64,000 nt of DNA from Escherichia phage vB_EcoM-RPN242: the sequence record OL656110.1; one strand, given 5' to 3'. The notes under the pieces were generated by a model. That model made no database searches, was not told where the DNA came from, and saw nothing but the letters and a program-made list of their open reading frames with translations. Shown piece by piece: positions 42,802 to 64,000 of the stretch. The first letter of the stretch is position 1. Each line of letters begins with the position of its first letter. The position numbers were made by a program, and so were the translations under genes.

Positions 42802-45012
42802 TCACCGTCTCAGCCATTCTTCCATAGACATACCAGAGCGTTCATCATAAACCTGAATTCCACCGAACCCTGGGATGTTCTCCACAGAGTGAGGATCTGG
42901 CGTCGTCATCATGCCCCCAAATGGTAGCATCTGTGATTCTTCCATCGCAGACAACCGTCCTCTCATATCCACAGAGATATTTGAATTGGTGAGATCACTA
43001 AACCATTCTTGTTTCACCGCCCATGCATACAACACGAGGGGCATTACACAGTCATCATGACAACCATCATCGGCTTCATACCTTGTTCCAGTCCATACGA
43101 ATGTACTGAGTTCATCTATCGTGTCCTGGTCATCTATCACCAGCATTTCACGTTCAATCAGGGCTTTCAGGTTGGCACAGCCGTTTGTGCGCACCTTCTT
43201 GTTGGTATTGATACCAGGCTCAGGACGGCGACCACCGATTCTCTTGCCTGTGCCCTTGGTATCTGTTGTAGTGAAGATGATCTCGGGATATTCAATTTCC
43301 TGGTATAGAATTGTGATTACCTGACCACCCACGTCGTTGTTGGTCTCGACTAGCATCGGGCACGTTCCATACTTCTCGCCCATATCGGCGATTGTGTACG
43401 CATACATCATTGGAGGTATCGTGTTATTTCGATACTTGGCTGCGATCTTGTGAGGATAGTCTGTGATGTCGATAATGGTCAGCACAGAATAATCCCCTTC
43501 GACACCCTTGCCTGTATCTGCGATACCCATATAGATGCGCTTAGGATCGTAGTCGTGATAAATCTTGGTGAACTCGTTCGGCTCCTGATACAGCTTCGAG
43601 GTCATCTTGTCCAGACACTTGGCAGGTATCAGTGATCCCACAGAACCACGGAACTTAATGCCAAATTCTTGATCGAAACGTGCATCACCCAGCTTCGCCC
43701 TTTGTTTGGATTCCCAGTCTGGATCTTTGGTGTACGTTGGAACACGATACCATGGGACCTCGGTGAGTTTGAAGTCGTTGTATTGTGGGTGTTCTGGGTT
43801 CGCCTTGGTGACGATGTCGTAGAACAACCCGCGCTGACCTTTCGGCGTACTGGTCAGAATACAACGTGAAGTCTCTGCAGATGCAATCGCCGGGAATGTA
43901 GACTCCCAGAATTCAAAGTCGTTTTCAATGAACGCCACTTCGTCCACATACAGGAGCGATACAGATCGACCACGGATGGAGTCGGAAGATGTCGCATAGG
44001 CGTAGATCTTTGATCCGTTTTCGAACTCTATCAGCGTGGAACCGAACTTCTCACAACCCTGTTGGAGGAAGAATGGCAAATCTTGATATGCTTTGCGAAT
44101 ACGATCTAGGATTTCAATCGCCTGCTTCTCTTTGTTCGCCAGTACTGCGATCTCTTTGTCGGAGTGGAACATCGCATACCAGAGCAGGAACGCTGCCACG
44201 ACAGTCGTGTTGTGGCTGAGGAAGCCGTTGGTGTAGTAGCGCTGATCACTAGATTTCACCTGTAGGTCATACATGTGATGCGTCTCACCAGTCTGCCAAA
44301 CCTCACGGATTTCTTCTGGACCTTCTGACGTCATGATGTATGACCCAGCATTCAGGTCTTTGGCAAATATCTCCTTCATTTCCGGAGTGAAGAATATATG
44401 TTCGTCGGCCACGTTAATTCGCCGCCCAGTAACAGTCACAATAACGAATTCCGCATATTTCTTCGTCTTATGCGCTGCGATAACCGGAACCCAGCCACTA
44501 TCGGATTGCACAAAGTAACGCTTGCCGAAGCGGCTGTCCACGAACTTGTCATGGTTGCCAATGGTATTCAGCGGCACGGCGTGATTGACGTCCTCGAAGC
44601 GACTGTGAAGCTCCCCTATGGTCAGGAGCAACTGCTCTTGGCTGAGAGTATCGTAAACTGTGACAAGCGTGTCACCTTTTACACATTTCCCAGACTGACG
44701 AGCCTGGACGACCGCATTGAATCGATAGTCCTGGAAGTCATGGAACAACTGCTTCTGGTAATCGTGCATGTCAAAGAGGATGAAGCCTTTATCGATGGTC
44801 GTGATCTTGTAGTAGTTGGCGGCGAAGTAATGGGCGTCCATCGCGCACTCGACGAACTCCGATTCTTGTTCGTCGGTTAGCATCAACTCCACACGAGGTG
44901 CACGCACAGACGGCTTGCGCATGAACGTTTGGTCCATACGCAGTCTGACGTCTTCTGTCTTAAACCCCGTCTTGAGCGGGGCGTATTCTACATCACGCTT
45001 CTGATACGCCAT
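42802..45012 (-). CDS. 17: terminase large subunit (T4 gp17-like) interrupted by a mini-intein
   Basis: Extein sequence QARQSGK|TTVVAAFLLWYAMF...YVDEVAFI aligns with T4 gp17 SRQLGKTTVVAIFLAHF...YIDECAFI. Start taken at the ATG with SD GGAGAAGG. Confidence 0.85.
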   Translation of the reverse strand: MAYQKRDVEYAPLKTGFKTEDVRLRMDQTFMRKPSVRAPRVELMLTDEQESEFVECAMDAHYFAANYYKITTIDKGFILFDMHDYQKQLFHDFQDYRFNAVVQARQSGKCVKGDTLVTVYDTLSQEQLLLTIGELHSRFEDVNHAVPLNTIGNHDKFVDSRFGKRYFVQSDSGWVPVIAAHKTKKYAEFVIVTVTGRRINVADEHIFFTPEMKEIFAKDLNAGSYIMTSEGPEEIREVWQTGETHHMYDLQVKSSDQRYYTNGFLSHNTTVVAAFLLWYAMFHSDKEIAVLANKEKQAIEILDRIRKAYQDLPFFLQQGCEKFGSTLIEFENGSKIYAYATSSDSIRGRSVSLLYVDEVAFIENDFEFWESTFPAIASAETSRCILTSTPKGQRGLFYDIVTKANPEHPQYNDFKLTEVPWYRVPTYTKDPDWESKQRAKLGDARFDQEFGIKFRGSVGSLIPAKCLDKMTSKLYQEPNEFTKIYHDYDPKRIYMGIADTGKGVEGDYSVLTIIDITDYPHKIAAKYRNNTIPPMMYAYTIADMGEKYGTCPMLVETNNDVGGQVITILYQEIEYPEIIFTTTDTKGTGKRIGGRRPEPGINTNKKVRTNGCANLKALIEREMLVIDDQDTIDELSTFVWTGTRYEADDGCHDDCVMPLVLYAWAVKQEWFSDLTNSNISVDMRGRLSAMEESQMLPFGGMMTTPDPHSVENIPGFGGIQVYDERSGMSMEEWLRR
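44209..44685 (-). mobile_element. mini-intein (159 aa) inserted in the terminase Walker A P-loop
   Basis: Insert begins with Cys (CVKGDTLV), ends ...YTNGFLSHN and is followed by Thr. Excising it restores SGKTTVVA. Blocks A and F/G are present; there is no endonuclease-sized central domain. Confidence 0.8.
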
Positions 45013-45694
45013 CGTCTTCACCTTCTCCATTCGGCTCTGCCTGAACGTCGATTACATCTTCTTCGGGATCAGGTCCTTTGGGCGCAGCTTTCGCTGCAGC
45101 ACGTTCTTCAGCACGTTTACGGGCGTCTTCGATGGTCTTCAGTAGATCACGGGAAGACCTGGCCTGTTTACCGACGTTGACCGTGGTTGTGCCATCAGGG
45201 GACGTGGTGACCTCGACGGTTGTTTCGTCTCCAGGAGGTGGCTCTCTGTCGCCCGTGACCGCCTTGATAGTTTTCTGGTTCTCCATCAGGTCTTTGTTCA
45301 GGCCGCGCATGAGTTCACCCAACTCTTTGAAGACTGTGAAGGCACGGGGTGCTTCAGTCGTCGTCGCGAGTTTGGCTGCCTGTCCCATCATGAACATCGT
45401 GGCTTCCTGCATGGCATAAGTCGTGTCACGGATGCGTTTGTAGTCGGTGGTGGCATCAGTGTCTTCGAAGTCTGGAACCTTAGACTCCTTGGGCTTCAGC
45501 TCTTCTGGGTCCAATGAAGGAGGAAACACCACAGGCTCATACCCCGCAGGCTTTTCACCCAACCATTCGCCTGTATCCGGATCGTAATTTTTTCCGGCCA
45601 TAGGCGAGGTCTTCTCCATGACTTCTTGAGCGACCTCATCCCGCGCTTGGATAGCACTGAGGGTGGATAATAGGCGTTCTGACATAGCACTCAT
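44993..45694 (-). CDS. putative terminase small subunit (gp16-like by position)
   Basis: 233 aa from the ATG with SD GGAGA; immediately upstream of and overlapping the large subunit gene. Confidence 0.5.
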   Translation of the reverse strand: MSAMSERLLSTLSAIQARDEVAQEVMEKTSPMAGKNYDPDTGEWLGEKPAGYEPVVFPPSLDPEELKPKESKVPDFEDTDATTDYKRIRDTTYAMQEATMFMMGQAAKLATTTEAPRAFTVFKELGELMRGLNKDLMENQKTIKAVTGDREPPPGDETTVEVTTSPDGTTTVNVGKQARSSRDLLKTIEDARKRAEERAAAKAAPKGPDPEEDVIDVQAEPNGEGEDDGVSEA

Positions 45695-45696
45695 AA

Positions 45697-46392
45697 TCAA
45701 TCTCCAGGATGATGTACACCGTCTTTGTCAACACGGAACCACTCCGGCAGTTCCGTCCACGGTGTTTTCAAATCATTAGACATTTCGATAATTATCTCTT
45801 TGATCCCGTTAGGATCCCCGCCTCCCTCGTTGTCCACCCAATAGTCATACCCGTAGATGAAGCCGCTCAGCTGGAACATGAAGGAGCAGTCGACGTGTGG
45901 TGAATCAGAAGCATCCCCTTCCCAGTTATCGGACATCTGGTGGCTGATCAGTTGGATCTTGATCTTCTGGTCTTGCTGTAGTGTATCGTTGTCCTTGATA
46001 CCACAGTCTAGAGAGGGAGTGAATACCGAATAAACCTGCTCTAGCACCTGTAACATCTCAACCAATTTCTTGGTTCGGATATTGTACTCAAAATCGATAA
46101 TCAGGGGGATTCGCTGCTTCGCCCCTGCTGTTGGTGTCGATTGTCGATTGTGGTACGTCTTCGTCACCTGTTTGTTGATCTCAAACTGGCCAAAAGAGAA
46201 TGTCGCAAATGGAAGCATGTTGGACGGCACGTTCCTGTTGAGGTCATTGCGTCTCCCGATGGCCATGTGTAATGGGACTTCCATAAGACCACGCTCTGTG
46301 TTCACCTTCAGATCAGACATAATGGTGGCAAACAGATTGATGTATTTCATCAATGAATCATGGTAGAAGTAATTTTCAAATGGTCTGGCCAT
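45697..46392 (-). CDS. 15: tail sheath stabiliser / completion protein (T4 gp15-like)
   Basis: N-terminus MARPFENYFYHDSLMKYINLFATIMSDL parallels T4 gp15 MFGYFYNSSFRRYATLMGDLFSNI; SD TGGAGAA. Confidence 0.65.
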   Translation of the reverse strand: MARPFENYFYHDSLMKYINLFATIMSDLKVNTERGLMEVPLHMAIGRRNDLNRNVPSNMLPFATFSFGQFEINKQVTKTYHNRQSTPTAGAKQRIPLIIDFEYNIRTKKLVEMLQVLEQVYSVFTPSLDCGIKDNDTLQQDQKIKIQLISHQMSDNWEGDASDSPHVDCSFMFQLSGFIYGYDYWVDNEGGGDPNGIKEIIIEMSNDLKTPWTELPEWFRVDKDGVHHPGD

Positions 46393-53995: not shown

Positions 53996-56221
53996 TCACG
54001 CTTCTGGCGAGGGGATAGTAAACCAATCGGACGCTGTTCCTGTTGTAGTGCCTTTATGCCTCCAGCCACTAACAGTTCTTTTTACCGTAGGGCTATCCTG
54101 CCAACCTGTTGCCGGGAGAAAGAAATTCCTCACTGGGGCGGGGTTTAACGCTCCAGTAGCTGGCGTGGCGGTTCCAGTCTGAGATGATACGAAGGTGGTT
54201 ACTGTTGAGTAATCTATTACGTTATCATCATGAAACGCATTCGTGTATAGATTTGCGGGTGCTGAGTTAACGAAGAATGCCGTAGTAACCCCGCTAACCT
54301 TGTTTCTATATACGTTGTTCCATCTACAGTTACCACCAAGGCGTATACCCTCAGAATCAGAAGCCCCCGCAATGGTGTTACTATCTATGTCACAATATTG
54401 GAAACTTTGAGCTACTAAAAACCGGCAACTATTACGCGTAACCCTGCCGTAAGTAGACGTACCATTGGCATAGTAAACTGTTATATTGCCAGATGTTAAA
54501 CAGTCTTTAATCGAGAAATTGGTCATAGGGCTAGTAAGGTATACACTGCCAGTACCTTTCACTGTAATGTTTATATTTTTTCTAACTGTCAGGGTGTATG
54601 CGGGCGCGCTATACATACTGACTATATACCCGTTCGCCCCTGTATTTACAGGGACATTTGCATCCACTGTCACATAATCACAGTCCTTAATTAATATCGC
54701 AGCGGTTGTTTGAGCGCCAGTCTTTACGAATCTAATAGACGGGTTTGTGATGGTAAAGTTCTGGCATTGCTCCATAAAGATAACGCCTGATACTTGATCG
54801 TCTGCCGCCAGCGAGTCTACAACAATACGCTGAGCACCAAATGCCCCCATAACCCCATACTTTCCGCCTTTAATATAATCAGCATGGGTGTTGCAGTCGA
54901 AGCATTTTGCACCAAAATATATACCTCCGTTGTTGGCCGTAGGTTTTAGGGTGTTATGGGATGTACGGATGTTACGGCAGCCAGCATAAGATATTATTTG
55001 CGCATCCCCACCGGTCCCTCCAATGTGGGTCGTACCTGTAACAGTACAATCTGTAGATCCGTAACCAAAAAATATATTACCATTTCCGACACGCCCGGTA
55101 TGGGTAGTGTTGTGGTACACCACACCGTACGCGTTATCATGCCTTGAACCGCCATTTCCATTATAATCAAAAACAGTACCATGGAACTCTATAAGCGAAG
55201 CCCCCACAGATTGGTACATGTAGCTAGACCCTGACGCAGAATTTTTTAAGATTCCCCCGATGAACTTAGTAGCGTTGCCTTTTATAAGATAAATAACCGA
55301 ATTGGTGGTAGTTAGGTCCCACGGTAAAGCCGTTGCTAAATTTACGGTAGCACCTGATATGGACGAGATTAAAAAAGATTCGCCTTGGTATCCGGTTACA
55401 TCCGGATTCTGTGCGTTGGCAATATACCAAGCGTCACTTGTGTCCTCAGTGCGTATTACCAACGCCCGAGTATACCCAGTTCCTGCCACCTCAGATGTTA
55501 ATGTGATGGACGTTGCTCCGGAAGCCGCAGGGGAAAGCAAGCTGAATTGGCTCTCGCTGACGAAATTAAGAGCATTAGCGGTCAATGATGTCAACCCAGC
55601 ACCGTGACCGAAAGTAAAAATCGTACCTTTTGGTATGTTGACTTGTGAATGGGAAATTGTCATGCCCGGAGGAACAAAAACATTCCCCGAGTTAATGGCT
55701 AACTGTAAACTAGATGCCTCATCAGACCCATCACCGACAACCCCAAAAGCACGCACGTCCCGTAAATTAGGATCTGTCTGCGGCTTCCAGTCAGCGTTAC
55801 CAACTGGGTTAGTTCCTGCGACAATAGTTACAGGTAAGGAACCTAAGTAGGTGTAACCTATGCCATTATAAAATAGTAATTCATTTCTAGTATTCACAAC
55901 TAAACCAGTAGCAAACGAGTCGGATAGGTTCACGAACTCTCTACGTGTAGCAGCCAGTTCCCCCAAATCAACTGTGCCTGCGGAATGAACCAGGACTGCA
56001 TGTTTATTGAGGCTTACGGCAGTGGTTCCTACTGGAAGTACAGGTAATGAGTAAGCACGTTGGGTAGACTTGTCATAGATTACTTTGTAGCCACCCAAGT
56101 CCACTCCCACAGCAAAGTAGACTACTTCATTTTGCTTAACACCAAACTTACGAGCAATGGCTTGCTTATTGGTAAGAATACCAGTAGAGCCTTTACCGCC
56201 TTGTGAGAACATTTCGTTCAT
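53996..56221 (-). CDS. tailspike protein 1 (beta-helix type)
   Basis: 741 aa; N-terminal module NKQAIARKFGVKQNEVVYF...VLVHSAGTVDLGELA is shared with the other tailspikes; C-terminus is repetitive and Gly/Asn/Thr-rich, typical of a parallel beta-helix. Confidence 0.75.
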   Translation of the reverse strand: MNEMFSQGGKGSTGILTNKQAIARKFGVKQNEVVYFAVGVDLGGYKVIYDKSTQRAYSLPVLPVGTTAVSLNKHAVLVHSAGTVDLGELAATRREFVNLSDSFATGLVVNTRNELLFYNGIGYTYLGSLPVTIVAGTNPVGNADWKPQTDPNLRDVRAFGVVGDGSDEASSLQLAINSGNVFVPPGMTISHSQVNIPKGTIFTFGHGAGLTSLTANALNFVSESQFSLLSPAASGATSITLTSEVAGTGYTRALVIRTEDTSDAWYIANAQNPDVTGYQGESFLISSISGATVNLATALPWDLTTTNSVIYLIKGNATKFIGGILKNSASGSSYMYQSVGASLIEFHGTVFDYNGNGGSRHDNAYGVVYHNTTHTGRVGNGNIFFGYGSTDCTVTGTTHIGGTGGDAQIISYAGCRNIRTSHNTLKPTANNGGIYFGAKCFDCNTHADYIKGGKYGVMGAFGAQRIVVDSLAADDQVSGVIFMEQCQNFTITNPSIRFVKTGAQTTAAILIKDCDYVTVDANVPVNTGANGYIVSMYSAPAYTLTVRKNINITVKGTGSVYLTSPMTNFSIKDCLTSGNITVYYANGTSTYGRVTRNSCRFLVAQSFQYCDIDSNTIAGASDSEGIRLGGNCRWNNVYRNKVSGVTTAFFVNSAPANLYTNAFHDDNVIDYSTVTTFVSSQTGTATPATGALNPAPVRNFFLPATGWQDSPTVKRTVSGWRHKGTTTGTASDWFTIPSPEA

Positions 56222-56497
56222 AATGACCTCTTTGTTTTTCTAAGTAAGCCTCCCAACGTGGGGAGGCATGTAAGTAAAGTTATTTACCGATTCTCAATTC
56301 AGCTAACCAACCTAGAATTTGTTTATTGATTCTAGACGGGTAAGCAGCCTCTAACCATGCACATCGGTCTGGTATTAAACCTCACCTTGAACCAGCAGGA
56401 GTAACAAATTCTTTCCATCCTTTCTGTAGAACTCAGGTATACGCTTCTTTAATACCATTATTACCAACAATACTTGCATACACAACAGACACTAAAC

Positions 56498-56530
56498 TCT
56501 ATATAAGAAAAGGTCCCGAATGGGACCTTT
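56498..56530 (-). terminator. intrinsic terminator after tailspike 2
   Basis: AGGTCCC-gaat-GGGACCT hairpin followed on the minus strand by TTTCTTATATAG; the same flanking motif CTATATAAGAAAAG as at 53948. Confidence 0.55.
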
Positions 56531-56539
56531 ATAATAAAA

Positions 56540-58963
56540 TTAAGGGCTAACCCGATACCACCCGTCGTAGCTAATATACAAACGTTTACCGGACACAACT
56601 GCATCAATGCGAAGCGTTTTTTCACCTTCAGTAAAGAACGCTCCTCCAGTGTTCCCGATGTTCATTCGAAAGCTGGCTGGAATATTTCCAGAGGTAAAAC
56701 CGATGTCCCCGTTGTTCACCCCTGTTACTGCTATGTATGCGTAATCCCGCGCGACAGGAAATCCTGTCACAGATATGAACTGACTGGTGCCGGAACTCCA
56801 TTCAATTGTCACATCAAACACACCGAATATATGAGCAAAATCTCCGACATAATTTATGTTATGTACGGTATACTCGCCGTATGATATCACCGCATTGGTG
56901 CCTGATTGAACTGTAATTTCAGGCGAACCGGGGTCATTCGCTAAGAAAGTACGGTCTGGTCTGATTTTGGCGGATGAATTCGCCACCGTTCTGGTAACGT
57001 TGTTGAGCCAACCGGCCTCCACCGGATCCCCATTTCGCGTAGACCTTACAATGTTGTTACGCAATATTGCGTTAAAAAACGTAATATCGGAGATGTAAAT
57101 ATTATGGTGCTGCCCGGCTACGGCCCCGCCAAACAACATCCCATTAGAGTTGTACTCATAAGATACGTTGTTCTCAATGATGCTGTTGCGCGCCACTCCA
57201 TTTAATTCTAGCCATGATATGTTAGACGGGCCTGTGTAATCAGAACCAAGTCTAATACTGGTGTTATTGGTGAATGAGCTATGGTCGAAATTATCCAATC
57301 TCCAGTTAATACCCAGAGTGCCTTCTTGACCATTCCCAGTTACCGTTACCCCTAGCAGGTTCTGTAATATATAGCCATAACACACTCTTGTCCTGTCCGG
57401 ATAATAGTCGTTCCTGTTAGTGTGATCACAGGCATTAGCCTCTATAACAGAGTATTTAAGATCCCGATAGCAATGCCCATAATCACGGCAACTATTACTA
57501 TAGTTAGTAGATATTACGCATGAAGTGCCGTTGTTTATAAATATCCCACCGAGACATGCGGTAACGCGGTTGTTTCCTACTCGCGACGCAAATACAACAG
57601 GGAGAATTAGCCCATACTTGCAATCGTAAATATAGACGTCTTCTATCGTGGCGTCGGATACCACGCCTGCATTTACGATACCAAATTCTACCGCGTGGTT
57701 TTCCGTTGTAGTTTTTGTCCCATGCAGAGTAACCCCTGTGATGACACCGGACCATCTTGAACTACTAGAATCCCCTAAACAAATAACCGCATTCATATCT
57801 GTAGGCAGGGTTCCGGTATATCCTCCAGATAGTGCAGGCGCCGTCACCAGAACTGTAACGGTAGTGGATGTCGTTTTCGTTATAGTAACTGATTCGCGAC
57901 TTCTCCCTATTACTGATACATTCGATGGTAGAGCAAGAGTACTGCTTATTTTATAGTTACCATCCGGGAAATAAACCACGCCTTTTGTGGTGCTGGCATA
58001 AGCTATAGCTGCTTTTATAGCTACCGTATCATCAGTAGCTCCGTCACCAACAGCACCAAAATCTTTAACGTTATAGTAGTCTTTAAAATGGCTATCAATG
58101 GTTCGCTTAATTGCAGAAGAAACACCAGATAAGCCAGAATTTACTAATGTTCCCCCATCAGTAACCATAGCCGTTTTATATACCTGCAACTCATTCTCCA
58201 CTGGAGTTACATCATTGGGTGCAGGGAGCAGGTCAACAACAATCCCACCAGGATTGTATGTTAGTTGGTCACCATTAACGGAAGAAATATATACGTTAGT
58301 AGGCAATGTAGGCAACCCATATGCCTTCTGCTCACTAACAGAATAAATAATCTTCTTACCATTGAGGGACTGAGTAGTATCGGTGCTAAGAATTACTTCA
58401 CTATCTTTAACGTTAGTAGCACGAGCGATTTCTTGAATACTTCGGTCAAACAACGGACTGATATTCGGTTGTTTAACAGACATTTCAGCGACTACCCAAA
58501 CGCCTGCTGTCAGCGCAGTTTGTAAAGACACTTTCCCTGTCGTGCTGTCATAGGAATATTCAATTTCGGGTGTTTTGTACTCACCACCGATATAAAGAGA
58601 TTGGACTCCATAAGATGTGTAATCAGGAGTGAACTCGGTTTCACCTCCTATAGCCTGAAACTTATAGATTCGAATCCCAGTTTTATAATCTTCTGGAGAC
58701 AGAATCTTATCAAACAGACAGAACACAACGTCACCTTTGGATAATGCGCGTCCGAGATTTAACGTATTTCCATCGATTTCAAAGTTGTCTAACGGAACTT
58801 GCATACCACCGTTGATTGTGACTATACCAGTGACAGGGTAGAAAGGGAGGGAGATAAACTTCTCTCCGCCCGTTGCTGTGTAAGTGTATGGAATCTGGTG
58901 CGGAGCTGTTACGACCGCTCCAAAGATGCTCTCGACGTTTCTGGTCATTTGAAAATACCCCAT
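56540..58963 (-). CDS. tailspike protein 2 with extended N-terminal anchor and pectate-lyase-like beta-helix
   Basis: 807 aa; an N-terminal region of about 200 aa precedes the shared ARATNVKDSEV module; YNVKDFGAVGDGATDDT is the pectate-lyase-superfamily signature. Confidence 0.8.
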   Translation of the reverse strand: MGYFQMTRNVESIFGAVVTAPHQIPYTYTATGGEKFISLPFYPVTGIVTINGGMQVPLDNFEIDGNTLNLGRALSKGDVVFCLFDKILSPEDYKTGIRIYKFQAIGGETEFTPDYTSYGVQSLYIGGEYKTPEIEYSYDSTTGKVSLQTALTAGVWVVAEMSVKQPNISPLFDRSIQEIARATNVKDSEVILSTDTTQSLNGKKIIYSVSEQKAYGLPTLPTNVYISSVNGDQLTYNPGGIVVDLLPAPNDVTPVENELQVYKTAMVTDGGTLVNSGLSGVSSAIKRTIDSHFKDYYNVKDFGAVGDGATDDTVAIKAAIAYASTTKGVVYFPDGNYKISSTLALPSNVSVIGRSRESVTITKTTSTTVTVLVTAPALSGGYTGTLPTDMNAVICLGDSSSSRWSGVITGVTLHGTKTTTENHAVEFGIVNAGVVSDATIEDVYIYDCKYGLILPVVFASRVGNNRVTACLGGIFINNGTSCVISTNYSNSCRDYGHCYRDLKYSVIEANACDHTNRNDYYPDRTRVCYGYILQNLLGVTVTGNGQEGTLGINWRLDNFDHSSFTNNTSIRLGSDYTGPSNISWLELNGVARNSIIENNVSYEYNSNGMLFGGAVAGQHHNIYISDITFFNAILRNNIVRSTRNGDPVEAGWLNNVTRTVANSSAKIRPDRTFLANDPGSPEITVQSGTNAVISYGEYTVHNINYVGDFAHIFGVFDVTIEWSSGTSQFISVTGFPVARDYAYIAVTGVNNGDIGFTSGNIPASFRMNIGNTGGAFFTEGEKTLRIDAVVSGKRLYISYDGWYRVSP

Positions 58964-58984
58964 AAAGGATTTGCCAATATGGGG

Positions 58985-58991
58985 TATTTAG
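58985..58991 (-). promoter_or_regulatory. late-promoter-like motif CTAAATACCCC upstream of tailspike 2
   Basis: Part of a conserved cassette repeated at 61647. Confidence 0.45.
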
Positions 58992-59014
58992 TCTGAACTA
59001 ATAAATTTATAAAC

Positions 59015-59044
59015 AAATGTATAGAGAAACCCCGCCGAAGCGGG
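59015..59044 (-). terminator. intrinsic terminator after tailspike 3
   Basis: CCCCGC-cgaa-GCGGGG hairpin, the same core as at 34187 and 61693; T-rich on both sides. Confidence 0.6.
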
Positions 59045-59066
59045 GCTAGTTTTTATTTGTGGTGTG

Positions 59067-61616
59067 TCAATTGAGTTTTGATATCTCTACAGTTATACCG
59101 AATACGTTATTCGGTCTACTTGTGGTTGTAGCTATAGTTAGCTCAAAGAAATGCGCGTTTATATCTGGTGACTGTGTGTATCCCGCAGAATTAGTTAATG
59201 TTACATTGAGTGATATGTCCGAATCTGTTACGCCGTTTATGCGAATTTCATTCACAGGTCCTGATAGCGACGCGGCGGAAGTTGCACCTATCTTATGATT
59301 TACCAGGTACGTCTTCTCAATATAAGCAACGGATCCCCCATTATTATATGAAGAGCACGACTTAACTTTTACCAGTAGGTTTTGCGATTCTAATGTTCCA
59401 TAGTTATCAAAAATCTTTAAAACTTTGTTAGCAGATGCACCAGAAATGCTTCCACAGTTCACTTCCCATAATGTAGTTCTATTCGCATTCGGTGCGTTCT
59501 CATACATGTAGAAACTACCATCTGGAATTACCCTGTTGTTTATTAATGTTTTCAGATTTCCGCAGTTACCTATTAGTCTCACGTGGGCATTGATGTTTGT
59601 TAATGTTACTGTTTTTATTTTTGATTCTGTGTTTGCGCACCTAATAGAACCACCCATGCAGTTAATATTTTCGTAATAGACATTACCAGCTTGCCACGGT
59701 AACGCGAAAATATCGTCCGCCCGGTTTTTATAATTGAGCGCAACATTAGCAGCAATCCAGTCTCGGTGCATAGAAGAATCACCAGTAAATGTGACGATAC
59801 CTATTTGAGGGTCTTCTGCTGGGGTTGTGCCCAAACTGGCAACTATATTGATATCTGTCAGCTCACCACCAAGACATCTTATATTTGGCATATCATATTC
59901 TTCGGTGGCAAATACGTTACGCCATTTAGCATCAAAACCAGCGTGCGAGTCCATCGTGGCGAAGTTATTATAACCGAAGCACTTTTTAACCTCGAACTTG
60001 TTGAACCATGTTGTTGGGGAGGCAGCATGTCTACAGAATGATGCTGTGATGCTATCAACAACTGTATCGTAAGTGCCCGCCGCAGGGCTGATAGGATACT
60101 GACACCTATTAGCAACTACATTGCCAATCCTTGGCATATAGCAAGCTATTAATAAGTACGAGGAACCACCACTGGTTTCCACGTCACCAGAAAAGACTGG
60201 CATATAAAAACCACGGAACCATGAAGATGAAACCCCAAATGATGCGGTGCCTATATTAACAAAAGATGAGTTATCACGGTTGTTAAAGTGCTCCATCTTG
60301 AAGTTATTGAAAATCAACCTTACCGGTTTGTACCTGTTAACCTTAACGTTGTTTGCTACTAGATGATCGAATAGCGCTGGCCTATCAACTTTCATATTAG
60401 AACCAGATTCACGCTCTGCAATAAACAACTCCCTTGAGTTAAAATTCCACTGAGTCTCGTACGTCTTGTTGTCCTCTATATAAATCAAATCACCCTCTAC
60501 AGCCCCAGCCACCCGCGCAACTGTGGAGCCGCTTACCATATCAGCTAGAAGTGAAGACTGAATCTCGGTTGATGACAGGTGCATTTCCACCCCATCAGAG
60601 GCCCCGAACAGCTTTATGCCAGACCAATCAACAACTAAGTTTTTATCAATCGACAATAGTTCTATATTACTGGTTACAGTAACCTCACCGACTGACCTGA
60701 AGTATCCACGGCACCCGGATGTGTAAGCTACAGTCAGGAATTCAGATATAGTCTGGCCTGATACAGACCCTCCAGCGGTTATGCCGAAATCATCTCCGCA
60801 AATCGCGCTTATAGGGGTAAATGATGTTAATGCCGGCTGGGAAGCAGACCTGACCCACATTGTACCGCCGGTTGAGCATACCGAATCTACAGGTAACTCT
60901 GCCTCCGTGGACGCAATCATCTCGTAAAAAGAGGAGAAATGTTTGTATATTCCAGCAACTTTGTAACCACCAGTTATAGGATTAGTCCCAGCGACAACTA
61001 TACCAGCAGGACCGGAGAACGCCTTACCAGTGCGTTCTTGTAGTAGCACATCGTTGGCGTTCACTAGTGTACCGCCCGACTCAAAGCTACCATCTACTAG
61101 ATTATAGCCTGCTGTTGCATAGCTACGGCGCAACGCCTCACGGGTCTGTGTACTTGTGAACTGATTGGAGCACCTAATATAACCACTCCCTGGAAGAGTA
61201 GGGTCTGTGCCAGCAGGAACTACTTTAGGTAATGCCCCATCCCAACGGTACTTCCCATCTGTAAAGACAACTAATTCATTCTTGGTATTAACTGTTACAC
61301 CGGTATCAAATGACCCAGACAATGTGACGTACTCTTCACGAGATACAGCCAATTCCCCGAGATCTACAGAACCTGCTGAATGTACCAGGATTGCCTGTTC
61401 GTTCAGACTTATCGCAGTCGTTCCTGAAACAATACCTGAAGGAAGAGAATAAGCCCGTTGGGTAGACTCATCATAAATTACTTTAAATCCACTGAGATCA
61501 ATACCAGCAGTGAAATAAATGACTTCGTCTTCTTTGACACCGAAATTTCGAGCGATAGATTGTTTGTTAACTTCTATGGAAGTGGAGCCGCGTGGTTGAT
61601 TGAATTGAGAAATCAT
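59067..61616 (-). CDS. tailspike protein 3
   Basis: 849 aa; N-terminus VNKQSIARNFGVKEDEVIYF and a 60-aa block nearly identical to tailspike 4. Confidence 0.75.
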   Translation of the reverse strand: MISQFNQPRGSTSIEVNKQSIARNFGVKEDEVIYFTAGIDLSGFKVIYDESTQRAYSLPSGIVSGTTAISLNEQAILVHSAGSVDLGELAVSREEYVTLSGSFDTGVTVNTKNELVVFTDGKYRWDGALPKVVPAGTDPTLPGSGYIRCSNQFTSTQTREALRRSYATAGYNLVDGSFESGGTLVNANDVLLQERTGKAFSGPAGIVVAGTNPITGGYKVAGIYKHFSSFYEMIASTEAELPVDSVCSTGGTMWVRSASQPALTSFTPISAICGDDFGITAGGSVSGQTISEFLTVAYTSGCRGYFRSVGEVTVTSNIELLSIDKNLVVDWSGIKLFGASDGVEMHLSSTEIQSSLLADMVSGSTVARVAGAVEGDLIYIEDNKTYETQWNFNSRELFIAERESGSNMKVDRPALFDHLVANNVKVNRYKPVRLIFNNFKMEHFNNRDNSSFVNIGTASFGVSSSWFRGFYMPVFSGDVETSGGSSYLLIACYMPRIGNVVANRCQYPISPAAGTYDTVVDSITASFCRHAASPTTWFNKFEVKKCFGYNNFATMDSHAGFDAKWRNVFATEEYDMPNIRCLGGELTDINIVASLGTTPAEDPQIGIVTFTGDSSMHRDWIAANVALNYKNRADDIFALPWQAGNVYYENINCMGGSIRCANTESKIKTVTLTNINAHVRLIGNCGNLKTLINNRVIPDGSFYMYENAPNANRTTLWEVNCGSISGASANKVLKIFDNYGTLESQNLLVKVKSCSSYNNGGSVAYIEKTYLVNHKIGATSAASLSGPVNEIRINGVTDSDISLNVTLTNSAGYTQSPDINAHFFELTIATTTSRPNNVFGITVEISKLN
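61239..61385 (-). repeat. near-identical coding repeat in tailspike 3 N-terminal module
   Basis: About 145 bp with only a few mismatches against 63519-63665; encodes the shared VLVHSAGSVDLGELAVSREEYVTLSGSFDTGVTVNTKNELVVFTDGKYRWDG block. Confidence 0.8.
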
Positions 61617-61646
61617 GATAATACCCCAAGAATGACCAATATGGGG

Positions 61647-61653
61647 TATTTAG
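61647..61653 (-). promoter_or_regulatory. late-promoter-like motif CTAAATACCCC upstream of tailspike 3
   Basis: Part of a conserved cassette repeated at 58985. Confidence 0.45.
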
Positions 61654-61675
61654 TCTGAACTAATAAATTTATGAA

Positions 61676-61710
61676 CAAAGTTATAATAAGAACCCCGCCG
61701 AAGCGGGGTT
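61676..61710 (-). terminator. intrinsic terminator after tailspike 4
   Basis: AACCCCGC-cgaa-GCGGGGTT hairpin with T-rich flanks. Confidence 0.6.
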
Positions 61711-61715
61711 TATTG

Positions 61716-64000
61716 TTATGATGCATTTGCTGATTTGTTTAAATACCATCCGTAGTTCGTTTTTATTAACTCTACAATCTCCCCGTTTGTCTTGTATTTT
61801 GTCTTCCCGGTTTCTGTATTATACATAATTCTGTCGGTGACAGAGACGCCGGACGCTTGTTTTGAAAGCGTCACAACAGTGTTGCCGGATAACGGAAGTA
61901 TTGATATCCTTTGTCCGATATATCCACCAGTGATTGACGTTATCACTGATCCATTACTTCCAGCGTCGAGATAAAATACGTCGCAAGAGTTGGCATCTAA
62001 TGTAGTTGTTTCAGTTGTTAGCGTTTTCGTTGGCGACGAAATACCAAGCACAAATGATGAACCGTTCCATGTATATTCTTTGCCGTCAGCAAGACCAATC
62101 ACTCGCTCGTTGATTCTTAAATCGGGTGCAAAAGTCTTTCTAATGTCAACAATTTTAATAGTGCCACAAAACGGGACAGGGATAATCACGTTACCTGCAA
62201 GCCTGTTAATAGTGTAAATTGAATTGCTGATCGTCCACTGTCTACCGTTCCACATACTCATAAATGAACCAGAAGATAGAAGCACGGTTGAACTGTAACC
62301 TGCTTCCAAAGCATTTGTGTCTGTTATCATGCCGCGATCAATAGGATTGCTAAAATCGTCAGAGCAGTCGAATACTCTAATGTTTGCACGTCCTTCATAA
62401 TTACCTGATTGACCAACAGGTGCGATAACAAAGAGATAATCCTTATCAAAACCATAATCAGGGCCAACGCGTAAGAACGACGCCATACAGTTAGTGGTAG
62501 GGAACTGTCCTTTTACAACCCACTTTCCACTAGAATCTTGCATCAATAGCTTTTGAATGGCTATTTTGTACGGCTTAGTGGTCGTATCTGCTGCGCGCTC
62601 AATGGCAAACGGTGTTCCGTCATAAAAATTTCCGAAACCAATTTCACCGCCAGATGTACCGAGAGTATCGGTATCCGTGTCTTTCCTGACATCTTCACCG
62701 TAGGTGTAGTTACCGCTATCATCAACTGTGATATACCCCTCAACTATTCCGGTAGATAGTTGAGTTAAATAATAATAAGGAATTGCAGGCTTGCCATTTA
62801 TGTACCCGACTTGTGTAGGTGCAATTGATGAGAAGTAAGCACCAGATGGTTTAACCAATGGCGTAATATCAACAGGGGTGCTCCATGTATTGCCACCATC
62901 CTTTGATATGACATATTCAATAGTTGATGTTGTGTCAGGGTTAGTTCCTTGTTGTGCATGCCCCCACCCAGTAATCCCCTTCATTGATGTAAAGAAACAA
63001 TACAAATATCCATCAAGATTATTTAGGAATAGTACCGTTTCAGAAGTGGCATATCCTGGCCCTTTGTTAACAACAGTTCCAGTGGTCCAGTTCACACCGT
63101 TATCATCAGATATTAGGTAATCAATGTGCATAGGTGTGCCGTCCTGTCCTGGGTCAATATTAGCACCATCCTTCACTGTGTAGATACATACCACCCGCCC
63201 ACTTGGAAGTGACACCGCTTTTGGTGCAAAGTTAAATACATTCTCCACATAAGTTTGCAACTGTAAGCGCAAATTATTGTTAAAGCTTCTTGAGTATTTA
63301 TTCCCAAAAGCGAAATTAAATCTATTTTTTGCAATTGATTGCCTTTTGTAAAGCTCAAAATCTTTATCCTTGACTGCTCCGTTAACTAAATCAACTCCGT
63401 CATCATCAGCCAGGTCACTTCTTAAACTTACATCACCAACACTTAACCATTTTCCTGCACCAGTACCACCAGCACTCCCTGGGGTTGAGCCAGCAGAAAC
63501 CTCTTTAGGCAATTCCCCATCCCAGCGATACTTCCCATCTGTAAAGACAACTAATTCATTCTTGGTATTAACTGTTACACCGGTATCAAATGACCCGGAC
63601 AATGTGACGTACTCTTCACGAGATACAGCCAATTCCCCGAGATCTACAGAACCCGCTGAATGCACAAGTACAGCGGAAGGACTAAGACTGACAGCAGTAG
63701 TACCAGGGGCAATATCAGCAGGCAAGGGATAAGCCCTTTGCGTCTCCTTGTCATAAATAACTTTATACCCACTTAACGCAGCACCAACACTAAAATAAAC
63801 GACCTCTGTATCTTTAACATTGGTTACACGAGCAACTTCCCGCAAAGTATAATCAATTTGATTGTAGATGTTTGGTGTTCCATTGATAATTACAACAACT
63901 TCATCCTCTGGTTCCAGTTCTTGCGCAAGAGTGATTTTACTGGTTGATGGATCGAATGTGAATCCCAGATTTTTATACTGGCGACTTCCGTTTATATCAA
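61716..64000 (-). CDS. tailspike protein 4 with BNR/Asp-box repeats, N-terminus beyond window edge
   Basis: Frame remains open upstream of the track start (a TTG) to position 64000; the upstream translation matches the tailspike 2 linker. Two Asp-boxes, SDDNGVNWT and SKDGGNTWS. Confidence 0.75.
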   Translation of the reverse strand, partial: DINGSRQYKNLGFTFDPSTSKITLAQELEPEDEVVVIINGTPNIYNQIDYTLREVARVTNVKDTEVVYFSVGAALSGYKVIYDKETQRAYPLPADIAPGTTAVSLSPSAVLVHSAGSVDLGELAVSREEYVTLSGSFDTGVTVNTKNELVVFTDGKYRWDGELPKEVSAGSTPGSAGGTGAGKWLSVGDVSLRSDLADDDGVDLVNGAVKDKDFELYKRQSIAKNRFNFAFGNKYSRSFNNNLRLQLQTYVENVFNFAPKAVSLPSGRVVCIYTVKDGANIDPGQDGTPMHIDYLISDDNGVNWTTGTVVNKGPGYATSETVLFLNNLDGYLYCFFTSMKGITGWGHAQQGTNPDTTSTIEYVISKDGGNTWSTPVDITPLVKPSGAYFSSIAPTQVGYINGKPAIPYYYLTQLSTGIVEGYITVDDSGNYTYGEDVRKDTDTDTLGTSGGEIGFGNFYDGTPFAIERAADTTTKPYKIAIQKLLMQDSSGKWVVKGQFPTTNCMASFLRVGPDYGFDKDYLFVIAPVGQSGNYEGRANIRVFDCSDDFSNPIDRGMITDTNALEAGYSSTVLLSSGSFMSMWNGRQWTISNSIYTINRLAGNVIIPVPFCGTIKIVDIRKTFAPDLRINERVIGLADGKEYTWNGSSFVLGISSPTKTLTTETTTLDANSCDVFYLDAGSNGSVITSITGGYIGQRISILPLSGNTVVTLSKQASGVSVTDRIMYNTETGKTKYKTNGEIVELIKTNYGWYLNKSANAS
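63519..63665 (-). repeat. near-identical coding repeat in tailspike 4 N-terminal module
   Basis: Pairs with 61239-61385. Confidence 0.8.

Follow-up and report, generated by a model that had tools for sequence, protein, structure and literature searches.

On the minus strand of the 64,000-nucleotide stretch of DNA from Escherichia phage vB_EcoM-RPN242 (OL656110.1) that was analysed in full, hereafter the window, the gene for the large terminase subunit, TerL, is interrupted by 477 in-frame nucleotides (44209–44685) that are very probably those of a small intein. The precursor open reading frame (ORF; 42802–45030) specifies 742 amino acids from its first ATG and has its stop codon at 42802–42804. 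What would be its N-extein (44686–45030) ends in the first half of a Walker A motif, ARQSGK (44686–44703), after which come the 159 residues of the insert, beginning with CVKGDTLV and finishing with YTNGFLSHN, and then the C-extein (42802–44208), which opens with the second half of the motif in TTVVAAFLL, its first residue, Thr+1, being encoded by 44206–44208. The interruption is between the Lys and the Thr of Walker A (GK|TT), and its excision gives ARQSGK|TTVVAAF, i.e., an SGKTTVVA. The remainder of the ATPase domain and an RNaseH-like nuclease domain are specified by the C-extein. An original prediction of a 159-residue mini-intein at 44209–44685, residues 116–274 when numbered from the first ATG, was exact to the base, junction residues included.

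How good is the evidence that the interrupted protein is a terminase, and that the interruption is precise? When the full-length ORF is searched with Pfam profiles, Terminase_6N is matched with 63.5 bits, by a segment (residues 275–467) that begins only past the insert, and Terminase_6C with 29 bits. On deletion of the insert in silico, the Terminase_6N match spans the junction (109–308) and increases from 63.5 to 80.8 bits, and it and the Terminase_6C match (now 29.8 bits) are both above the Pfam cut-off. The spliced sequence aligns with T4 gp17 (PDB 3ezk/3cpe; E 3e-72) and runs unbroken across the junction, arqsgkttvvaafl being opposite srqlgkttvvaifl, just as had been expected when restoration of SGKTTVVA was proposed. 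With both domains, a Walker A SGKT and a position adjoining the gene for the small subunit, TerS, the host protein is by these several signs a T4 gp17-type (Terminase_6) large terminase.

The same restoration is seen in nature. A search of 5.8 billion proteins yielded 12 clusters with the 159-residue insert, at 70–99% overall identity, and five close ones that are intein-less (P0013–P0017; 575–581 residues, with 73–85% identity in the TerL portion that aligns). In these five, and in more than 25 other intein-less orthologues, many of them more distant, the sequence reads RQSGK|TTVV and the gap corresponds exactly to residues 116–274. One of the five, P0014, is on a 118-kb contig whose gene order, gp13-gp14-gp15-TerS-TerL-sheath-tube-portal, is that of the window, and of the 90 nucleotides that surround its empty site, 73 match the flanks of the window insert. 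Intein-less and intein-bearing sequences interleave in an extein tree (neighbour joining on BLOSUM distances, without support values), which is crude and serves to show the interleaving, not to count gains and losses. As judged from these alleles, the sporadic distribution is that expected of an intein.

Among cultured phages the picture is more uniform. In nucleotide sequence the window TerL gene is 99% identical to that of Escherichia phages LHE287, YX22 and A221, 98% to that of AV101 and 88% to that of Shigella phage Ag3 (Agtrevirus), and on this gene the window phage belongs to the Ackermannviridae and is Agtrevirus-like. Coverage of the 742 residues is 80% or more in 321 phage records, and in 278 records there is an intein whose identity to that of the window is 60% or higher; to go by these records it has all but reached fixation in cultured Kuttervirus, Agtrevirus, Limestonevirus, Taipeivirus and Miltonvirus. 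Isolates carrying a 99% identical gene have been grown in culture, which means that a functional terminase must be made from it despite the interruption.

What, then, is the insert? On its own it matches, well past what chance would give, the Pfam family Intein_splicing (PF14890) with an E-value of 1.6e-8 and 35.0 bits, the gathering score being 35.8, and of the two NCBIfam models for intein ends it passes intein_Nterm (TIGR01445; 25.1, cut-off 24.5) and is below intein_Cterm (TIGR01443; 11.9, cut-off 15.6). The PDB sequences that it matches with phmmer are all inteins (the engineered Cat consensus, PabCDC21-1, VidaL, gp41-1 and Mxe GyrA), and the region of its blocks F and G aligns with those of Cat, VidaL and gp41-1. 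Modelled with AlphaFold2 from an alignment of 23 sequences, the insert has a mean pLDDT (predicted local distance difference test) of 95.4 and a pTM (predicted template-modelling score) of 0.88, and is a single compact beta-rich domain of all 159 residues. With Foldseek this model has 70 matches in the PDB at E <= 0.001, the top 50 of which, all with a probability of 1.00, are without exception inteins or bacterial intein-like (BIL) domains, with the VidaL intein 6vgv ranking first (E 1e-11, TM 0.76/0.83). On the model a Hint fold can be confidently assigned. The profile search for such a fold on residues 116–274 that accompanied the original prediction has in this way been answered in its favour by structure comparison, with profile scores close to their cut-offs. 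Neither Pfam, where Hint families alone were matched, nor the model gave any sign of an endonuclease domain (LAGLIDADG, HNH or GIY-YIG) in the insert, again as foreseen, and because no endonuclease family was detected and only about 40 residues are present between His96 of block B and Asp140 of block F, it is, on sequence and model, a mini-intein; its 159 residues are within the range of about 130–200 for such elements.

Three neighbouring classifications can be set aside. The Pretoxin-HINT family (PF07591) scores 16.2 where its gathering threshold is 27.7, and the host protein is a terminase and not a polymorphic toxin. A BIL domain is disfavoured by score, by context and by the presence of Thr+1 at a conserved host site. 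A class 3 intein, with its WCT triplet and obligate block F Cys nucleophile and as a rule no Cys1, is excluded since Cys1 is the sole Cys of the intein.

The features that remain are those of class 1. Block A, CVKGDTLV (44662–44685), starts with the putative nucleophile, Cys1 (44683–44685); block B, A93-D94-E95-H96 (44398–44409), has the His of the TxxH motif, with an invariant Ala at the position of the Thr; and blocks F and G, HMYDLQVKSSDQRYYTNGFLSHN (44209–44277), contain Asp140 (44266–44268) and the terminal His158-Asn159 (44209–44214). Blocks A and F/G had been recognised earlier; block B is an addition. Comparison with 25 inteins at the same TerL site, of 150–181 residues and with identity down to ~35%, showed C1, A93, D94, H96, D140, S157, H158 and N159 to be invariant, and Thr+1 (Thr275, the Thr of GKT) follows all 25 and is invariant in all aligned sequences. 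The N-terminal Cys, the C-terminal His-Asn and the ensuing Thr to which attention was first drawn are all among these invariant residues. By the method of Nei and Gojobori, the ratio of non-synonymous to synonymous substitution (dN/dS) is 0.03–0.22 for the intein and 0.01–0.10 for the exteins, with Ag3 versus RC-2014 giving 0.04 for each. By this measure the intein evolves under purifying selection.

Where does translation of the precursor start? Upstream of the second ATG (45012) is a Shine-Dalgarno-like GGAGAAGGTGA, and it is from this ATG that every annotated relative is read, giving 736 residues. For both reasons the true start is probably ATG 45012 and not the first ATG at 45030 (region 45010–45030, minus strand). 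Numbered from 45012, the precursor has 736 residues, of which 110–268 are the intein, and the spliced product has 577; from the first ATG the insert comprises residues 116–274 and the spliced product 583. The ~583 residues originally predicted for the spliced protein are accordingly right for the first ATG, and for the likelier one need to be lowered to 577.

The chemistry that we infer is canonical for class 1. Translation would give a precursor of 736/742 residues with a broken ATP-binding loop. An N-S acyl shift by Cys1 at the Lys-Cys bond, assisted by His96 of block B, would be followed by attack of the Thr+1 hydroxyl on the thioester, with help from Asp140 of block F, to yield a branched intermediate. 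Cyclisation of Asn159, aided by His158, would then free the 159-residue intein, and an O-N shift would form the Lys-Thr peptide bond, giving SGKTTVVA and an active TerL of 577/583 residues. Without a homing endonuclease, the element probably persists because nothing short of a precise deletion could take it from an essential site, and ordinary homologous recombination exchanges it between co-infecting relatives.

That 44209–44685 (minus strand) encodes a class 1 mini-intein that interrupts the ATP-binding loop of TerL is a reading that we hold with high confidence, and from it we infer that splicing occurs and is required for packaging. Several considerations temper this. The curated profile scores are borderline, those for PF14890 and TIGR01443 being under their cut-offs. 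Block B of all 25 inteins has an Ala where most inteins carry Thr, though its His is invariant; in the related Cat intein block B is SDNH. At the +1 position Thr is less nucleophilic than Cys or Ser would be, so that splicing could be slow or conditional. Finally, in the searchable literature this intein has in-silico mentions alone, and experiments on splicing were found neither for it nor for any other Ackermannviridae TerL intein.

Could sluggish splicing be of use to the phage? The intein might be kept as a beneficial conditional switch that gates the packaging ATPase and nuclease in response to, e.g., temperature, redox state or metal ions, Thr+1 making splicing rate-limiting; sensor roles have been proposed for P-loop inteins (PMC5050341). 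Its retention throughout the family would be in keeping with this, as would purifying selection that in some pairs, such as Ag3 and RC-2014, is comparable to that on the extein, but such selection is expected anyway for any intein at an essential site. The single Cys leaves no scope for an internal disulfide trap, the existence of intein-less relatives with the same gene order implies that a switch would be dispensable, and a search for direct evidence found none. We regard a switch as unlikely.

In the TerL allele of the window, sliding windows and informative sites delimit a tract of ~420 nucleotides (gene nucleotides ~303–725; 44306–44728, minus strand), made up of the final ~15 N-extein codons and the initial ~127 of the intein, that is of the type present in the Kuttervirus phage PhiSH19: the PhiSH19-type state is found at 100 of the 111 informative sites inside the tract and at 64 of the 371 outside it (Fisher p 5e-46). 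Over the somewhat wider region of residues 91–240, nucleotide identity is 95% to PhiSH19 and ~76% to the Agtrevirus Ag3, whereas in the rest of the gene it is 90–95% to Ag3 and 75–82% to PhiSH19. Expressed by segment, the C-extein of the window is 97% identical in amino acids (90% in nucleotides) to that of Ag3 and 86% (75.5%) to that of PhiSH19; for the intein the respective values are 75% (78%) and 96% (92%). Within the intein, residues 1–127 are PhiSH19-type and the last ~32 codons (residues 128–159) Agtrevirus-type. To judge from these identities the TerL allele of the window is a mosaic in which one intein allele has been partly overwritten by another. Nor is it the only one, as the TerL of ISTP3 is a second, different mosaic (loci compared: L002, PhiSH19; L003, Ag3; L004, ISTP3), and two Kuttervirus phages, PhiSH19 and Mooltan, differ hardly at all in their exteins (dN 0.008) but widely in their inteins (dN 0.16). 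On these comparisons three or more intein alleles, with mutual nucleotide identity of 70–78%, are in circulation and being shuffled across genera. Base composition carries no signal of recent foreign origin, G+C being 49.7% for the intein, 49.2% for the extein and 48.4% for the window. The mosaic history is a modest addition to what is known of this intein.

Is the exchange merely recombination, or has the insert been actively mobile, homing with the help of a free-standing endonuclease that acts in trans, so that the mosaic is a co-conversion tract? Sporadic distribution on the extein tree, a second mosaic in ISTP3, and a tract of ~420 nucleotides that crosses the N-terminal junction and is 95% shared in nucleotide sequence with a phage of a different subfamily would suit such homing, and in Limestonevirus and SKML-39 a NUMOD3/homing-endonuclease gene is directly upstream of TerL. 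However, the window TerL has no adjoining endonuclease gene and the tract ends inside the intein, ~100 nucleotides short of its 3′ end, because of which it is taken to have replaced part of an existing intein and not to have filled an empty site; homing of a whole intein into an empty site is on that ground rejected as the origin of the mosaic. Since ordinary recombination between co-infecting phages accounts for the pattern, homing in trans seems to us improbable. Equally doubtful is the bolder proposition that the intein is something beyond a stranded selfish relic: that its coding region is a recurrent hotspot of inter-genus recombination from which functional chimeric inteins emerge, an exchange that free-standing nucleases of co-infecting Ackermannviridae might promote, or else that the intein gates terminase activation, with slow or conditional splicing at Thr+1 timing the onset of packaging.

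Far less probable than any of these, and in our view hardly tenable, is that the insert is a degenerate Hint domain that stays in TerL without splicing, the ATPase working with it in place, or that there is just N- or C-terminal cleavage. In every one of the ~280 close relatives in culture the segment is present and has a constant 159 residues, and the scores fall just short of two curated intein cut-offs, which is what such a domain might lead one to expect. The insert, however, parts the Lys and the Thr of GKT. P-loop ATPases, T4 gp17 among them, need both for ATP binding. The need for an intact GKT in TerL has been argued likewise elsewhere (PMC5050341). Moreover, a domain that does not splice would not need catalytic splicing residues, yet all are invariant over deep divergence, and syntenic orthologues exist that are precisely without the segment. 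The two outcomes by which the original prediction was open to refutation on sequence grounds, a segment conserved in orthologues as a non-excised domain and the lack of a Hint-fold match, are not what was found. Of the alternatives at the RNA level, an intron is excluded because the insert is open, in frame and conserved as protein, and against a tRNA or another structured RNA is the result that neither tRNA genes nor Rfam families were detected by ARAGORN and Rfam searches of the whole 64-kb window.

As to the surroundings of the mini-intein-bearing gene, the TerL start is overlapped by the gene for TerS (44993–45700, minus strand; T4 gp16-type, PF11053 DNA_Packaging), and nowhere in the window is there a free-standing homing endonuclease gene between the two. 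Limestonevirus (Dickeya phage RC-2014, L005 1309–2187) and Salmonella phage SKML-39 (L009 1309–2187) do have a free-standing NUMOD3-type homing-endonuclease gene between TerS and TerL. Other neighbours are homologues of gp13, gp14 and gp15, the tail sheath gene and a tail-spike cluster. The latter (53996–63845, minus strand) consists of four successive large ORFs of 709–849 residues, two with Tail_spike_N (TSP1/Gp66), one with a pectate-lyase-like and one with a BNR/sialidase-like match, and is a multi-tailspike cluster typical of Ackermannviridae.

Annotation of this gene deserves comment. In the nearest deposited genomes it is labelled merely ‘terminase large subunit’ or ‘hypothetical protein’, and in Dickeya phages KJ716335, KM209228 and KM209320 and Escherichia phages OR776998, ON184125 and ON184126 TerL is entered as a ‘pretoxin HINT domain protein’ or ‘hypothetical protein’. 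On orthologous TerL, as in KJ716335 and KM209228, the pretoxin label is by our profile comparison a mis-annotation, in view of the sub-threshold PF07591 score of the window insert given above. A proper entry should read ‘intein-containing terminase large subunit precursor’ and list two products, the intein and a mature TerL of 577 residues if translation starts, as is likely, at ATG 45012. This is of some consequence as TerL is a standard phylogenetic marker, and an intein that is left in, having a different and mosaic history, distorts trees of the Ackermannviridae. In addition, these phages are candidates for therapy and biocontrol, and their packaging would seem to depend on splicing. With natural alleles that are intein-plus, intein-minus, chimeric and split, all at one site, they also offer a convenient system. 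Understanding of inteins as such is unchanged, the element being a class 1 mini-intein of an ordinary kind at the classic P-loop position.

Actually, the TerL intein of the window was already known, in that it had been annotated and published for close relatives, and the emphasis that the original prediction put on novelty in this lineage was overstated. The GenBank entry for Salmonella phage Mooltan (MH688040) already has the gene as an ‘intein-containing terminase large subunit precursor’, and its mat_peptide ‘intein’, 477 nucleotides, is the base-for-base homologue of window 44209–44685. The 2013 announcement of Salmonella phage Marshall states that its large terminase ‘is interrupted by an intein’ (PMC3853055), and that of Klebsiella phage Magnus in 2019 likewise reports an intein-interrupted large terminase (PMC6763660). 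In host gene, insertion point, length (477 nucleotides, 159 residues) and catalytic residues the inteins of these three are like that of the window. The Mooltan intein is 76% identical to it in amino acid sequence, the window intein differing in being a mosaic with a PhiSH19-type N-part and an Agtrevirus-type C-part.

Beyond the family, Lys|Thr is a ‘classic’ P-loop insertion point, other TerL inteins have been shown to splice, and splicing was argued to be necessary for TerL activity and oligomerisation (Kelley et al. 2016, PMC5050341). The mycobacteriophage TerL1-a P-loop inteins described there share with the window intein insertion between the Walker A Lys and Thr, class 1 chemistry and Thr+1, and for them too ATPase activity and oligomerisation were inferred to need splicing. 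They differ in that their host is a terminase_1 whereas that of the window is terminase_6/T4 gp17-type, and beyond the Hint blocks there is no detectable sequence relationship. The terminase_6 inteins of the same study are in the C-motif, and not, as in the window, in the P-loop, while TerL1-b and TerL1-c, which were tested for cleavage, have an identifiable active endonuclease domain that the window intein is without (PMC5050341). More distantly, tblastn with the window intein matched the TerL of Campylobacter phages IBB_35, CP20 and CP21, Delftia phage PhiW-14 and Vibrio phage VAP7 at 31–38% identity. The terminase intein of IBB_35 was published in 2012 (PMC3322345). The inteins of this set are far more divergent, the IBB_35 TerL has in addition an intron with an HNH endonuclease, and the VAP7 intein has 179 residues. 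A further arrangement is that of P0071 (Vibrio phage VP-1 TerL, 738 residues), P0050, P0065 and P0096, where a GIY-YIG endonuclease domain comes next, in frame, after an ATPase domain that may or may not hold the P-loop intein; these polypeptides are without the Terminase_6C nuclease domain, and the terminase appears to have been fractured by a homing endonuclease.

The closest parallels in sequence and structure are the atypically split TerL inteins of T4-like phages from metagenomes, i.e., the gp17-like ‘Terminase’ intein (Dassa et al. 2009, PMC2677866), AceL-TerL and the engineered Cat/VidaL. Cat and VidaL are the best PDB matches of the window intein (6dsl, E 0.009 in sequence; 6vgv, the Foldseek match noted above), and the block F/G signature YDL...YYTNG(I/F)(L/V)SHN is common to the split inteins and to it. 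Four metagenomic TerL homologues (P0042, P0044, P0053 and P0118) consist of a Met with ~120 intein residues, all of them past block A, then HN|TT and the C-extein, and from that layout look like natural inteins split atypically in the manner of AceL-TerL, with an identical P-loop insertion site. The window intein, with no break past block A and no intervening endonuclease gene, is by contrast contiguous and of the cis-splicing type.

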